Below, one piece after another: positions 2,508 to 23,794 of a stretch of DNA of 30,715 bases. The stretch covers positions 1 through 30,715 of IMG/VR virus record IMGVR_UViG_3300033402_000608, one strand, 5' to 3'. Under the pieces are notes generated by a model that worked only from the letters and a program-made list of their open reading frames with translations, was not told the origin of the DNA and did no database searches. Both the position numbers and the translations under genes were made by a program. Every line of letters starts with the position of its first letter. Positions within the stretch are counted from its first letter, which is position 1. The stretch is from a virus. Its lineage: Duplodnaviria > Caudoviricetes.

Positions 2508-3050
2508 TTACAGAATCGTTTGCTTTACAATGCGCGCGCCCGTGGGCGTCCCGAATCCATTTCCGCCGCGCAGCAGCCCGTTCGGCAGGGTGCCGCTGCC
2601 GCTCGAGGGCAGCGGAGCAGGCCCGCTGGCACCTCCGCCCACCACGGCGATGGGGGGCGATCCAAAGCTAACCGGCGCTGAGGGCTGCGAGCCGATGTAC
2701 TGCGAGTAGGCGCGCCAATACAGCGTCTGATTCCCCAATTGCAGATACAGGTTTCGCGCCGCTCCGAGGAAGTGCACGCGTGGCGCGGAAAACGCCGGCG
2801 TCACATCCGACTCCGCGAAATAAAACAGCCCCGGCCGCGATGCCGCCGGATCTGCAATGGACAGGTCAAACCATCCGTTTGCTGCCTGCACCTGCAGCGA
2901 AGCAATGGGCGCGGGCGCGGGCGAAGGCGTCGCTGGGTCCACGCCCGCGTTCTGGCTCGTAGCGTTCACCGCGGACACTATCTTCGTCAGCGTCTCGTAC
3001 AAATACGGGTCCCTGTCCTTTAGGGGTGCTAGTTGCGCAACCGTCAGCAT
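2508..3050 (-). CDS. Putative tail-associated protein (Fn3-like beta domain)
   Basis: 180 aa, GGGAG RBS, immediately downstream of the nozzle; LYWRAYSQY strand pattern. Confidence 0.6.
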   Translation of the reverse strand: MLTVAQLAPLKDRDPYLYETLTKIVSAVNATSQNAGVDPATPSPAPAPIASLQVQAANGWFDLSIADPAASRPGLFYFAESDVTPAFSAPRVHFLGAARNLYLQLGNQTLYWRAYSQYIGSQPSAPVSFGSPPIAVVGGGASGPAPLPSSGSGTLPNGLLRGGNGFGTPTGARIVKQTIL

Positions 3051-6633: not shown

Positions 6634-7656
6634 ATGGCAACACCGCCAATACCTCCAAGTGCTCCACCCCCTGACCCAGAGGCCAAACTCAAGAAGTCAC
6701 CTATTTTTATGAGTGTTCTGAATGAATTGAATGTCAACGTTGATCAATTCCACAAGAGACAAAAACTCATCAACGAAATTGAAGGGGCACTCACGGCGCG
6801 TTACGGCAGCGCAAACCGTCTGATGAGCTATGTTTTGCGGTTTAATCATGCGCGAACAATTATGAATACCGCAGACATTCCGAATCTTGAAGCGGTTCTG
6901 AATTCAATTTCTGGCGCTGACCAGATAAACCTGCTACTTCACAGCCCCGGTGGTGACGGCACCATCATCGAAAAAATGGTAGATATGTGCAGAGCGCATC
7001 TGTCGGGCCAAAACCGAAAATTACGCGTGATTGTCCCGAATATCGCCAAGAGCGCAGCAACGGTACTCACACTTGGCGCTGATCAAATTCTGATGGGTTA
7101 CTGTTCTGAACTCGGCCCAATTGATCCACAGGTGCCGATAGCTGTATCAGGAATCACTCAATGGGTTTCTGCATTTGCCTTTATAGAGGCACGGGACAAA
7201 TTGATGAATCAGATTGCAGAGGCAGTCAAGAAAAAGGAACCAACTATTGGACTGCTCCAACAACTTGGCGGTCTCAATATTCCATTCACGGACGAAATGG
7301 AAAAGCAGATCGGTTTTGCAAAGACGACAGCCGTCACGCTACTCGATAAATTCATGCTCAATCCAACCTTCCCGGATGCGAAAGAGCGTTCCAAGAAAGC
7401 AAATGAAATCGCTGAAAAACTGCTATCCAAGCAGCTTTTCCCGGTTCACGGCCAATACATTGATGGTGCGACAGCCAAGAAACTTGGGTTAGAGATTGAA
7501 GTCCTCGATAAAGATGATAATTTGTGGAAACTGATTTGGGATTATTACGTCAGGTGCGAAATACAGATGAATATCCCGCTTCAAGTTGGGTCTATAAAGA
7601 CAAAACTGTTCGAGTCGGGAAATCAGGTTTCGCTAGTTTTCCAAGATACTCCCTGA
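6634..7656 (+). CDS. SDH-family Clp-fold serine protease
   Basis: LLLHSPGGDG, IVPNIAKSAAT (catalytic Ser), SELGPIDPQ (Asp), FPVHG (His); GAGGAG RBS. Confidence 0.85.
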   Translation: MATPPIPPSAPPPDPEAKLKKSPIFMSVLNELNVNVDQFHKRQKLINEIEGALTARYGSANRLMSYVLRFNHARTIMNTADIPNLEAVLNSISGADQINLLLHSPGGDGTIIEKMVDMCRAHLSGQNRKLRVIVPNIAKSAATVLTLGADQILMGYCSELGPIDPQVPIAVSGITQWVSAFAFIEARDKLMNQIAEAVKKKEPTIGLLQQLGGLNIPFTDEMEKQIGFAKTTAVTLLDKFMLNPTFPDAKERSKKANEIAEKLLSKQLFPVHGQYIDGATAKKLGLEIEVLDKDDNLWKLIWDYYVRCEIQMNIPLQVGSIKTKLFESGNQVSLVFQDTP

Positions 7657-12984: not shown

Positions 12985-13707
12985 TCAAAACGGCGTATAT
13001 CCGCTCCTCGTCGAAAACGGACGCCGCCTGCGGCCGCTCTGCTGCTCCCTCCGCACCGCCGCTACGACCAAGTCCTCGATCGCGTCGCTCGCCGCATCGT
13101 CCCACTTCTCTGCCAGCGGACTGCCCCTTGCCCATCCCGCCAGTGCTGCCGTGGCATACGCCAGCGCTTCCTGGGCGTTGCGCACCAGCACCGGTGAGGT
13201 CGCATCCGTGAAATCGGGATACGCTTTCAAATACCGCAAGCGGATCTGCGTGTCCTGCGTCGCTCCCAGAAACCACAGTCCGTCGGCGCGCCATTCCCAC
13301 ACGCTCAGGGTGACGTCCTGCACGCGGGAGGGCAGCCCGCCGTGCCTGGTCAGGTCCACCATCTCGTCAAACTCTTGTGTGGACAAATTCGGCCGCTCCC
13401 AAAGTTTCAGCGGCACCAGCAGGTCCGTCGGGAGCTGATTCGGCGGTGCGCTGGCGTCGCTCAGCGACACCTGCAGCGAAGCATCCTGCTCCGCCACCGC
13501 CGTCACCACCAACAGCACGTCATCCTGGATGAATCCCCCGCCGCCGGCGTTCCCAATCGCGCGCTGCACCTTGCGATAAGCGGAATTCAGATACGGCAAG
13601 AGCAAGGTATCCGTGAACAGGTTTCCCTGGGCATCATTCAGCAGCGACCTCACCAGTGACGTTATCTGCCCCGCCGTGTTATACGCACTCGATCCAACTA
13701 CGGGCAT
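12985..13707 (-). CDS. Head-tail adaptor (podovirus gp4/gp11-like)
   Basis: N-term TAGQITSLVRSLLND..FTD..LLPYLNSAY helix, LPTDLL motif, helical C-term; GGAG RBS before ATG 13707. Confidence 0.65.
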   Translation of the reverse strand: MPVVGSSAYNTAGQITSLVRSLLNDAQGNLFTDTLLLPYLNSAYRKVQRAIGNAGGGGFIQDDVLLVVTAVAEQDASLQVSLSDASAPPNQLPTDLLVPLKLWERPNLSTQEFDEMVDLTRHGGLPSRVQDVTLSVWEWRADGLWFLGATQDTQIRLRYLKAYPDFTDATSPVLVRNAQEALAYATAALAGWARGSPLAEKWDDAASDAIEDLVVAAVRREQQSGRRRRPFSTRSGYTPF

Positions 13708-13746
13708 TGTCCATTCTCCCGTCAAAGCATCGAAGTTCTTATCAGC

Positions 13747-13775
13747 TTGACATTATTACTATATACATATACATA
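13747..13775 (+). promoter_or_regulatory. Probable promoter of the tRNA-like gene
   Basis: TTGACA at 13747 followed by AT-rich TATACATATACATA; no exact consensus -10 at 17 nt. Confidence 0.45.
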
Positions 13776-13796
13776 CGAGCGGGGTCGGCGCGTCTC

Positions 13797-13885
13797 GGAG
13801 AATGCTCCCAGTGGGGGTACTGGACGCGCCTCTCAAGCGCTGAAGGCTGGCAACAGCCCCATGGGTTCGAGTCCCACATTCTCCG
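13797..13885 (+). tRNA. Allo-tRNA-like gene (8/4 fold), Ser-type body with CUC (Glu) anticodon
   Basis: Acceptor GGAGAATG/CATTCTCC (8 bp); D arm CCAGTG-GGGG-TACTGG; anticodon arm GCGC-CTCTCAA-GCGC; long variable arm GGCTG-GCAA-CAGCC; T arm TGGG-TTCGAGT-CCCA (4 bp); discriminator G; CCA not encoded. Confidence 0.8.
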
Positions 13886-13928
13886 TACCGCTTTCAGCGC
13901 GCCCAGAGCAACGCCCCCATAAGTACTC

Positions 13929-13957
13929 TTGACTAGTGCTTCATAGAGCCATAAACT
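13929..13957 (+). promoter_or_regulatory. Sigma70 promoter for the sRNA
   Basis: TTGACT(13929-13934)-N17-TAAACT(13952-13957). Confidence 0.75.
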
Positions 13958-13963
13958 CGAACT

Positions 13964-14032
13964 GCTTGAGAGGCGTGTCCAGCGCACGCAGTGGTTTTCG
14001 GGGCAGTCTTTACTGACTGCCCCTTTTTGTTT
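13964..14032 (+). ncRNA. Predicted ~70-nt sRNA antisense to the anticodon arm of the upstream tRNA
   Basis: GCTTGAGAGGCGTGTCCAG (13964-13982) pairs with tRNA 13820-13838 (18 Watson-Crick pairs + 1 G:U); bounded by its own promoter and terminator. Confidence 0.7.
14000..14032 (+). terminator. Intrinsic terminator
   Basis: GGGGCAGTC-TTTACT-GACTGCCCC followed by TTTTTGTTT. Confidence 0.85.
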
Positions 14033-14259
14033 CACTTCGAGTCCGGCAACGGCGACTTCTGCAAATAGGCCGCCACGCCAATCACCGCGTTGATCAGTGC
14101 TGCGGCCGTTCCAATCCGGACTGTCGCTCCCATTCCGGCCTGCAAATTAAAATGCGCCGGATCGATCCCCACCGCCGCCAGCCCGGTCATCACCCCACCG
14201 GCAGCTCCGCTAATCCCCGCCGCCACGATTCCCTTTAGCCAAACATGAAGCCGATTCAT
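14032..14259 (-). CDS. Holin-like small membrane protein
   Basis: 75 aa, two hydrophobic segments, YLQKSPLP tail, GGAG RBS. Confidence 0.55.
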   Translation of the reverse strand: MNRLHVWLKGIVAAGISGAAGGVMTGLAAVGIDPAHFNLQAGMGATVRIGTAAALINAVIGVAAYLQKSPLPDSK

Positions 14260-18324: not shown

Positions 18325-18400
18325 GCGGCGGTAGCTCACAAGTACGAGAGCACCGGGTTGCTAACCCGGAGAAAGGGGTCCGAATCCCTCCGCCGCACCA
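18325..18400 (+). tRNA. Atypical/possibly degenerate tRNA with GCU (Ser) anticodon but short variable loop
   Basis: GCGGCGG/CCGCCGC-A-CCA acceptor; GCTC/GAGC D stem; CCGGG-TTGCTAA-CCCGG; 5-nt variable loop; GGGG-TCCGAAT-CCCT T arm; lacks D-loop GG and TTC; TATGAT -10 box at 18313-18318. Confidence 0.6.
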
Positions 18401-22841: not shown

Positions 22842-23105
22842 TCATCCCCTCATCGCTTCCTGTTCTTTCTTCATCTGCATCTGCTGCCACGATCTCCGCC
22901 GCAATCTCGGCAACTCCACCGGCTTCACCGGCTCCGCAAACTCCACAGGCGGAAATCCCGCCGTCCCCAACAGCGAATTCAGCAGCGCCCGGTTCTCCCC
23001 CCGCAAACGCGCCACTTCCTCTTCCAGCAAACCCACATACCGGGTCCGAAAGAAGCCCCGGATCAAGCTTTGAGTGGTCATCATGTCAGATAGAATGTCA
23101 GACAA
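22842..23105 (-). CDS. Small coiled-coil phage protein between TerL and portal (start probably ~23081-23084)
   Basis: RYVGLLEEEVARLRGENRALLNSLL coiled coil; co-oriented. Confidence 0.55.
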   Translation of the reverse strand: MSDILSDMMTTQSLIRGFFRTRYVGLLEEEVARLRGENRALLNSLLGTAGFPPVEFAEPVKPVELPRLRRRSWQQMQMKKEQEAMRG

Positions 23106-23139
23106 AATGTCTTACAAATGTCAGATGCCATGCTATACT
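23083..23139 (+). promoter_or_regulatory. TA promoter with four direct-repeat boxes
   Basis: ATGTCAGA at 23083, 23095, 23118 and ATGTCTTA at 23107; extended -10 TGCTATACT at 23131-23139. Confidence 0.65.
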
Positions 23140-23160
23140 AGTTCAGCAAGGGAAACCGCC

Positions 23161-23436
23161 ATGTCAAGCCACACCAACCGCCGCAAAATCTCCACCACCG
23201 TAGCCCCGGAGACCGATGCCTTCCTCAAATCTCTCGTTCGCCGGGGTAAGGCCGCCAACCTCGCCGAGGCCGTCGATCGCGCGGTTGCTGTCGCTCGCCG
23301 CGCCGAGTCACGCCGCCGCCTGGAAGCCGCTACCGCCGCCTACCACGAATCTCTGTCAAAGGAGAACATTGCAGAAGACAACGCCGTAGGGCTTGCACTG
23401 GCTCACGAATCAGGGAAGGTGAGCTTCGATGAATGA
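23161..23436 (+). CDS. Ribbon-helix-helix-type antitoxin (MazE-role)
   Basis: RRKISTTV..AFLKSLVRRG..NLAEAVDRAV, acidic C-term; overlaps the toxin start. Confidence 0.75.
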   Translation: MSSHTNRRKISTTVAPETDAFLKSLVRRGKAANLAEAVDRAVAVARRAESRRRLEAATAAYHESLSKENIAEDNAVGLALAHESGKVSFDE

Positions 23437-23794
23437 CGCCTATCCTCTGTGGCCCGTCTCCCATCGTGGGGAGATTTGGGCTGCCAATCTCGGCGACCCT
23501 CCCATCCGCCACTGGGTGGTCATTCTCTCCGTCGATGCGCGCAACCTCAGCTGCCACATCGACTCCATCCTGGTCGTGCCTTTCAGCTCAAGGGGCATCG
23601 AGGGCCCTTCCGTAATCCGCATGGAACCTGGGGAATCCGGGCTGCCTGCTGTCTCTTGGTTGAAATGCTATTTCATCAGTACTGTCCGCAAGGCGCAGCT
23701 TGTGGACAGACTTCCCCGCCCATTGTCGAACCGGCGCATGCAGGAGGTCTGTCTCGCCGTTCGCCGCGCAATTGACCCGGACGCCCCGTTCTAA
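23429..23794 (+). CDS. mazF: PemK/MazF-family endoribonuclease toxin
   Basis: RGEIWAANLG..RHWVVILS.D.RN..ILVVPFSS..ESGLPAVSWLKC..ISTVRK..LSNRRMQEV. Confidence 0.85.
   Translation: MNDAYPLWPVSHRGEIWAANLGDPPIRHWVVILSVDARNLSCHIDSILVVPFSSRGIEGPSVIRMEPGESGLPAVSWLKCYFISTVRKAQLVDRLPRPLSNRRMQEVCLAVRRAIDPDAPF

Follow-up and report, generated by a model that had tools for sequence, protein, structure and literature searches.

The locus at 13708-14041 of the window, the whole analysed stretch of 30,715 nucleotides of phage DNA, raises the question of why a tRNA gene of atypical shape should be followed by a short segment complementary to its own anticodon arm. The reading favoured here, to which a probability of about 0.7 is given from comparative sequence analysis, is that the cassette would encode an RNA-RNA toxin-antitoxin pair with a mistranslating tRNA as the toxin. 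The features are as follows, homologues being counted among the 118 loci defined below.

13708..14041, + strand: whole cassette, on the opposite strand to the phage structural genes
13747..13775, + strand: candidate promoter of the tRNA precursor, TTGACA followed by an AT-rich stretch without a clean -10 box
13787..13794, + strand: leader segment complementary to tRNA 13823-13830 (5' anticodon strand), from sequence and fold
13797..13885, + strand: (8/4) allo-tRNA with 8-bp acceptor, 4-bp T stem, long D stem, long V arm and G73
13832-13834, + strand: anticodon CUC within the allo-tRNA; CCA is not encoded
13893..13900, + strand: trailer segment that is the complement of tRNA 13837-13844 (3' strand of the anticodon stem, V-arm start), from sequence
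13929..13957, + strand: predicted sigma-70-type sRNA promoter TTGACT-17-TAAACT, conserved in 101 of 118 homologues
13964..14030, + strand: predicted non-coding RNA of about 67 nt, placed from promoter and terminator
13964..13982, + strand: anti-anticodon segment complementary to tRNA 13820-13838, with covariation
14000..14028, + strand: intrinsic terminator with a 9-bp stem and T run (hairpin with T run 14000-14023), found in 103 of 118 homologues

The gene at 13797-13885 is labelled tRNA-Glu(CUC) by ARAGORN, and its predicted structure has the features of an (8/4) allo-tRNA, the 8-bp acceptor and 4-bp T stem giving a 12-bp branch and the D stem being long, as in tRNA-Sec. Identity as tRNA-Sec was ruled out by the CUC anticodon (not UCA), the 12-bp rather than 13-bp branch and a score of 39.6 bits with the tRNA-Sec model, below the cut-off of 47. 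Judged by sequence and predicted fold, the tRNA is of an already published kind, the (8/4) allo-tRNA described by Mukai et al. in 2017 (PMC5389517), and by eye it resembles rows 555-557 (type C8a, CUC) of the available supplement with few differing positions. The allo-tRNAs described there and in the accessible text of a review (PMC7609411) have the same fold, G73, a long V arm and a non-serine anticodon, and come from Acidobacteria. According to the accessible text of PMC5389517, an (8/4) allo-tRNA with a GAG anticodon inserted serine at its non-serine codon in E. coli, an induced (8/4) allo-tRNA other than the window's was serylated and killed E. coli, and other groups of allo-tRNA lacked translation activity; protein toxin-antitoxin systems near allo-tRNAs were also remarked upon. 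The window tRNA combines a serine-type body with a Glu anticodon and is predicted to be serylated and to read GAG. Reassignment of GAG to serine in the phage itself was rejected, since phage GAG codons stand opposite Glu at 148 of 174 aligned sites in relatives and Ser is outside the six commonest residues there.

The first-pass annotation of this DNA had proposed that a dedicated small RNA is made downstream of the tRNA, from a TTGACT-N17-TAAACT promoter to a 9-bp terminator. Both elements are present as sequence, at 13929-13957 and 14000-14023, and predict an RNA of about 67 nt. The complementarity it had claimed also holds: aligned antiparallel, 13964-13982 and 13820-13838 form Watson-Crick pairs at 18 of 19 positions and a G:U pair at the remaining one, G13826, and the target comprises the 3' D strand, the 5' anticodon strand and the entire loop, together with two bases of the 3' strand. 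A further pair, T13963:G13839, lengthens the complementary run to 20 pairs. No longer run of complementarity to the tRNA exists on the window's + strand than that of 13964-13982, and when the downstream flank was shuffled 300 times the best match was never above 15 of 19. Taken singly, the transcription signals of the window are at chance level (promoters 1 against 0.8 in shuffles, terminators 2 against 2.5), and promoter and terminator are significant only because they are conserved in homologues. A -10 box with a -35 box or extended -10 is found just upstream of the complement at 101 of 118 loci (2.9 with shuffled spacers, maximum 8), the TAAACT box being seen again in loci L257 and L285, and a terminator at no more than 70 nt occurs at 103 of 118 (control windows 22/118 and 1/79).

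The homologous sRNAs are predicted to be 50-84 nt long (median 62), a closed ORF of at least 10 codons is present in 5 of 89 of them, and no family in Rfam matched the sRNA. In predicted sRNA folds the anti-anticodon is about half unpaired, and no free single-stranded toehold stands out clearly in them. Between tRNA and complement, a terminator was found at only 3 of 118 loci, so that an RNA reading through from the tRNA would carry the complement in cis as well. Three RNA or presumed-RNA runs of 24 (share of each at most 0.06), taken together with one DNA run, yielded nothing but short contig fragments of relatives, and no transcript of the sRNA was seen among them.

If the complement serves to recognise the tRNA, it should follow the anticodon when the latter changes, and the covariation test proposed with the first-pass annotation was run from both sides. 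A motif scan from the tRNA side gave 12 viral and at least 123 genome loci (about 520 genome loci estimated), nearly all in Acidobacteriota; under the first viral pattern 10 of 17 matches were not tRNAs. With the window there were 138 distinct tRNA-side matches, of which 131 fold as 8/4 and seven were dropped, the survey being confined to the (8/4) type. Twelve kinds of anticodon occur among the 131, none of them a serine anticodon, and the codons read are commoner than the remaining codons (p about 0.001, on non-independent data). CCA is encoded in 2 of the 131. The position before the tRNA is able to pair with the discriminator (N-1:N73) at 119 of the 131 loci and in 35 of 47 housekeeping tRNAs, and this pairing could lead RNase P to cleave at a site that leaves the tRNA unchargeable.

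With the pairing register set from 19 positions outside the anticodon, and a complement called at 12 or more Watson-Crick pairs, such a segment was found downstream of 122 of the 131 allo-tRNAs and upstream of 12. Opposite the anticodon itself the match is perfect at 102 of the 122 loci (10,000 permutations: mean 22, maximum 37), and 114 pair when G:U is allowed (mean 33, maximum 48, again in 10,000 permutations). The eight loci left unpaired somewhere in the anticodon consist of four that were misregistered and four true single mismatches (two in L060, one each in L079 and L135). All these counts of loci take in related, non-independent sequences. A tree was built without the paired parts from the 118 rows that remain after removal of the four misregistered ones, which also underlie the later counts; it comes from a short alignment and its supports are rough. 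On this tree the anticodon changes 46 times, the anti-triplet 42 times and both jointly 48 times, and among 19 sister pairs that differ in anticodon the difference is compensated in 15, absorbed by wobble in one and left in three. At the core sites G:U was found at 53 of 658 eligible positions against A:C at 14 of 876, an excess that points to selection on pairing at the RNA level and not to a DNA palindrome.

The reverse scan used a motif of promoter plus sRNA in which the anti-anticodon was left free, and returned 8 viral and 120 metagenome loci with 91 distinct matches. All 51 matches that have an upstream allo-tRNA fit its anticodon, over six different anticodons (permuted mean 10, maximum 22); four of these 51 loci are contigs already present in the tRNA-side scan, and over 460 nt L226 has the same sequence as the window. 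The rest comprise 34 without a recognised tRNA and six too short to judge. The complement tracks the anticodon, far above permutation, from the tRNA side and from the sRNA side.

A complement of this kind is rare around the control tRNAs. One score rule was passed by 118 of 131 allo-tRNAs, by none of 30 tRNA-Sec and by two of the 47 tRNAs of the single-contig genome G003, namely a borderline tRNA-Lys and an extra tRNA-Asp that is itself a module of the G3:U70 type described below. The sRNA pairs better with the neighbouring tRNA than with any housekeeping tRNA of G003 at 117 of 118 loci. With G003 as a stand-in host, the pairing energy of the window sRNA is -42.8 kcal/mol with its own tRNA, against -37.4 kcal/mol with tRNA-Gln(CUG) and only -16.2 kcal/mol with tRNA-Glu(CUC). 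Ranked over all 118 allo-tRNAs, the own tRNA is the best partner of the sRNA in 77 cases and among the top five in 109.

Complementarity of leader and trailer to the anticodon arm, which was absent from the earlier annotation, is a further property of these loci. Runs of at least seven Watson-Crick pairs occur in the trailer of 106 of 118 homologues (about 19 when shuffled) and in the leader of 56 (about 20 when shuffled), the latter mostly with the 5' anticodon strand. The leader tracks the anticodon weakly: position 35 pairs in 64 of 102 cases against 38 permuted, and positions 34 and 36 stay within the permutation maxima. The predicted probability of the anticodon stem is 0.39 with natural flanks against 0.61 with shuffled flanks, a moderate misfolding, and the precursor of the window is predicted to fold into two long non-tRNA hairpins. 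As to its promoter, a -10-like box lies 24-36 nt upstream of the tRNA at 81 of 118 loci (14 in shuffles), with a -35 match of at least five of six in only one of the 81; a tRNA promoter required to have a -35 box or extended -10 was found in 6 of 118 homologues, fewer than in shuffles (11). Because the -10-like box is conserved and a good -35 box is almost never present, the sequences suggest that the tRNA promoter is weaker than that of the sRNA.

The sRNA unit also occurs apart from its tRNA. At L109 an insertion follows the tRNA and the intact cognate unit lies 2.5 kb away; L285 is the cassette of the window with the tRNA deleted and the sRNA retained; and in L204, L224, L255, L258, L279 and L289 remnants of a tRNA, or a damaged one, precede an intact sRNA unit. 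Four phage contigs (L163, L165, L172 and L178, with the slot just before position 3001) bear promoter, anti-CUC segment and terminator without a tRNA in the phage slot that the cassette occupies in the window, and stand-alone anti-CUC units without a tRNA are present also in L222, L230, L253, L264 and L280. By motif scan a CUC allo-tRNA was not found elsewhere in the former four contigs, which are partial; one of them bears a GAC module with an sRNA of its own. Among the 34 tRNA-less matches to the sRNA pattern 14 pass the terminator filter, including L268, where an intact tRNA is present that had been overlooked by the tRNA finder; many of the remainder are fortuitous matches to coding sequence, and the filter also removed a few orphans whose hairpin can be seen. 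L055 represents the converse case, its tRNA looking intact and the nearby sRNA being non-cognate only.

In the window the cassette lies in a phage structural region in which the terminase, major head, tail and SLT genes are all on the - strand, between a 75-aa ORF (14032-14259, -) and an ATG at 13707 (-). Contigs of one DNA run have the same flanks with different DNA in place of the cassette, the joints being 13707/14042 and 13708/14044; 13708-14041 is an exchangeable cassette. Among 26 related phage contigs none has the tRNA in this slot and four have the sRNA alone. Other relatives carry an allo-tRNA module between the terminase and the next large gene, the place occupied in the window by a MazEF-like pair (23074-23794, +, with the PemK toxin domain at 23429-23794) that runs against the late operon behind the terminase gene. 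In further relatives the module is placed where the window has a ClpP-like SDH-type protease gene (phrog_11747; 6634-7656, +), likewise inserted against the operon. The host of the phage is probably an acidobacterium, because related prophage genes flank the allo-tRNAs of the Acidobacteriota MAG contigs L055 and L070.

Most homologues lie in chromosomal intergenic sites, some of them shared, such as xdhC/adh and lhr. Sampling 151 genomes of the class gave three with the allo-tRNA motif, among them the centre genome, which had been picked for having it. A Pfam scan of 137 of the 254 neighbouring ORFs extracted revealed no conserved partner, synthetase or Cas gene; the neighbours were mostly housekeeping and not defence genes, though three loci have PIN toxins nearby and two have PD-(D/E)XK nucleases. 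The modules of L046, L047, L050, L067 and L068 occupy one chromosomal site (xdhC-like/alcohol dehydrogenase) with GCC or GCG anticodons, an apparent case of vertical inheritance with anticodon switching, as far as can be judged from their sequences. L060 has four module copies within 1.9 kb and L053 two divergent copies, with differing anticodons; some copies in these clusters have one anticodon mismatch to their own sRNA and match the type of a neighbour.

A second family of loci is organised in the same way around standard-size tRNAs with G3:U70 and A73 and anticodons GUC or GCG (L187-L194 and L390). The combination of G3:U70 and A73 constitutes the identity marks of alanine. Promoter, cognate complement and terminator were recognised by eye in all eight of L187-L194 and also in L390, and most of these loci have a trailer hairpin with its loop complementary to the anticodon loop. 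Examples are found in the slot of L177 and at G003:C1:712300-712371, the GUC members being named tRNA-Asp by ARAGORN, and four genomes of the class, out of 401, have the family. In the first 151 genomes to be sampled, the carriers of the allo-tRNA motif (G001, G099 and G113) are also the carriers of the G3:U70 family.

The mechanism that we propose for the cassette would proceed in three steps. A weak promoter would give a precursor whose leader and trailer pair with both anticodon strands, yielding an inactive fold that matures slowly. The stronger internal promoter would supply an RNA of about 65 nt in excess, the 5' end of which pairs over some 20 bp with the anticodon loop and arm; decoding would be blocked and the duplex probably marked for RNase III. 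If the supply of sRNA stops, through loss of the element or shut-off of transcription in an infected cell, the precursor pool would mature, serine would be placed at GAG (Glu) codons and growth would halt, the outcome being addiction or abortive infection. Stand-alone sRNA copies in related phages would then be counter-measures. The toxin-antitoxin reading had been put forward in the first-pass annotation, and the part of it that stands is the predicted, separately promoted anti-anticodon RNA, which covariation and the orphan and separated units make antitoxin-like. Release by read-through of the late operon, which it had named as a trigger, is unsupported because the homologues are mostly chromosomal and intergenic and the read-through RNA would be antisense to the tRNA too. 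A wider proposal is that two unrelated scaffolds, the Ser-type allo-tRNA and the Ala-type G3:U70 tRNA, are reprogrammable toxins in conflicts between Acidobacteria and phages, each held by an anti-anticodon RNA, with anticodon switching to escape neutralisation and with stand-alone anti-tRNA RNAs of phages as counter-defence against modules of a given anticodon; we put it forward tentatively, at a little under even chances.

The arrangement could be explained without a separate RNA if the complement had a cis role alone, a single long precursor folding its 3' end onto the anticodon arm. This would agree with the 115 of 118 loci that have no terminator between tRNA and complement and with the presence of the pairing in the predicted minimum-energy structure of the read-through RNA; however, promoter boxes directly preceding the complement are conserved (101/118), the unit of L109 is intact 2.5 kb off behind an insertion and units stand alone in phage slots, which makes a purely cis role quite unlikely. 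That the pair serves the host as a switch for regulated mistranslation, for stress adaptation or proteome diversification, and not a conflict system, is unlikely as well. Deliberate mistranslation by tRNA-ProX has been described (accessible text of PMC11415595), and chromosomal copies do lie amid housekeeping genes, some at shared sites (xdhC/adh, lhr), but occurrence is patchy (3/151 genomes of the class), anticodons switch rapidly, no conserved partner protein or synthetase was seen among the neighbours scanned, the unit is carried in exchangeable phage slots and tRNA-deleted copies exist.

The tRNA might also be a non-decoding mimic or decoy for SerRS, EF-Tu or a nuclease, controlled by the sRNA, as the possible N-1:N73 pairing (119/131), the rarity of encoded CCA (2/131) and the translation inactivity of other allo-tRNA groups (accessible text of PMC5389517) might suggest. 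Such a role is very unlikely, since it is the anticodon that varies among loci and is followed by the complement, the tRNAs read frequent codons and never a serine codon, and the allo-tRNA with the GAG anticodon (8/4) inserted serine in E. coli (same source, as accessible). The energy of -37.4 kcal/mol between the window sRNA and tRNA-Gln(CUG) of G003 could be taken to mean that the real target is a host tRNA; nevertheless, the neighbouring tRNA is preferred to every housekeeping tRNA of G003 at 117 of 118 loci, tRNA-Glu(CUC) reaches just -16.2, and the related idea that the pair recodes GAG to serine for the phage conflicts with the 148 of 174 aligned GAG sites that face Glu and with the absence of Ser from the six commonest residues. 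Either version is considered highly improbable. Both arms form a quasi-palindrome on the DNA, and template switching could account for their joint change, so that the complement would be a functionless by-product of inverted duplication kept alike in this manner. This has to be set against the roughly five-fold excess of G:U over A:C per site, the conserved promoter and terminator, the control tRNAs without a complement and the same layout around an unrelated tRNA scaffold, and its likelihood is judged to be minimal.

The toxin-antitoxin pair proposed here has partial counterparts among known systems. In hok the primary toxin transcript is kept inactive by flanking sequences, as is proposed for the present precursor. 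Type I systems such as hok/sok further share scattered intergenic copies and a short antisense RNA that has a promoter and a terminator to itself (PMC8610362), but their toxin is a peptide encoded by an mRNA, whereas here there is no peptide and the antisense segment is directed at the anticodon arm within a conserved tRNA fold. Type VIII comprises pairs in which both components are non-coding RNAs, to which the tRNA fold and the ORF scan of the sRNA correspond. Two validated type VIII systems, CreTA and SdsR-RyeA, are given by TADB 3.0 in the accessible part of its description (PMC10767807). SdsR-RyeA is similar in that an RNA toxin is masked by an antisense RNA (PMC8610362 and PMC10767807, as accessible); it differs in that SdsR is an mRNA-targeting sRNA with RyeA opposite at the same locus, while here a tRNA is followed by a tandem gene on the same strand, so that complementarity must be maintained by coevolution. 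CreTA is likewise an all-RNA pair that hits translation through a tRNA, but CreT acts by sequestering a rare host tRNA and is itself repressed at transcription by CreA through Cascade (PMC8501985), whereas the present model needs no Cas protein and the putative toxin is the tRNA itself. No linked CRISPR-Cas was found, with no Cas family among 30 ORFs of the window and no CRISPR repeat family matched via Rfam. The pseudo-ToxI of phage PhiTE is a phage-borne look-alike of an RNA antitoxin without its toxin (PMC3475682), as the orphan sRNAs would be, with the difference that ToxI binds a protein toxin and that the role of the orphan sRNAs is deduced here. The tRNA-ProX of Streptomyces are natural bacterial tRNAs with mismatched anticodons that mistranslate and can be toxic in E. 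coli; they have a dedicated synthetase, and the words 'antisense' and 'antitoxin' are absent from the accessible text of PMC11415595.

The text of Mukai et al. 2017 (PMC5389517), figure images aside, describes no antisense RNA, promoter, leader or trailer, and 'antisense', 'complementary', 'promoter' and 'terminator' are absent from the accessible text of its supplement. Full-text searches of a literature collection with few subscription papers found no antisense RNA to an allo-tRNA and no tRNA toxin with an RNA antitoxin. The sRNA gene and the paired system appear to be undescribed, the tRNA being of a known kind. The model offers a testable answer to a question open since 2017, namely how cells bear allo-tRNAs that are lethal to E. 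coli and why the anticodons are so diverse. If confirmed, this would be a toxin-antitoxin system with a tRNA as toxin, and its antitoxin would come from a natural antisense gene devoted to a tRNA; the system would be formally of type VIII yet with no component or mechanism common to SdsR-RyeA or CreTA. Since the unit is about 330 bp long, does without any dedicated protein and can be reprogrammed through three bases, it is directly testable in E. coli, and it could serve as an RNA switch for suppressor tRNAs. The 'extra' tRNA-Asp, -Glu and -Arg genes annotated in these genomes may be mistranslators.

The window has a second irregular tRNA at 18325-18397 (+), in a separate intergenic slot, with a GCU (Ser) anticodon, a short variable arm and A73; it may be another mis-charged tRNA, and no complement to it was found within 200 nt. 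At L139, in a record of Candidatus Aquilonibacter, presumably a genus outside Acidobacteriota, an allo-tRNA-like match with a damaged acceptor stem is accompanied by a cognate antisense segment, for which transfer and misbinning are the candidate readings. Finally, the ribosome-binding region of the downstream - strand gene (13712-13719) consists of the same eight bases as the 3' acceptor strand of the tRNA, an identity that is probably a coincidence.
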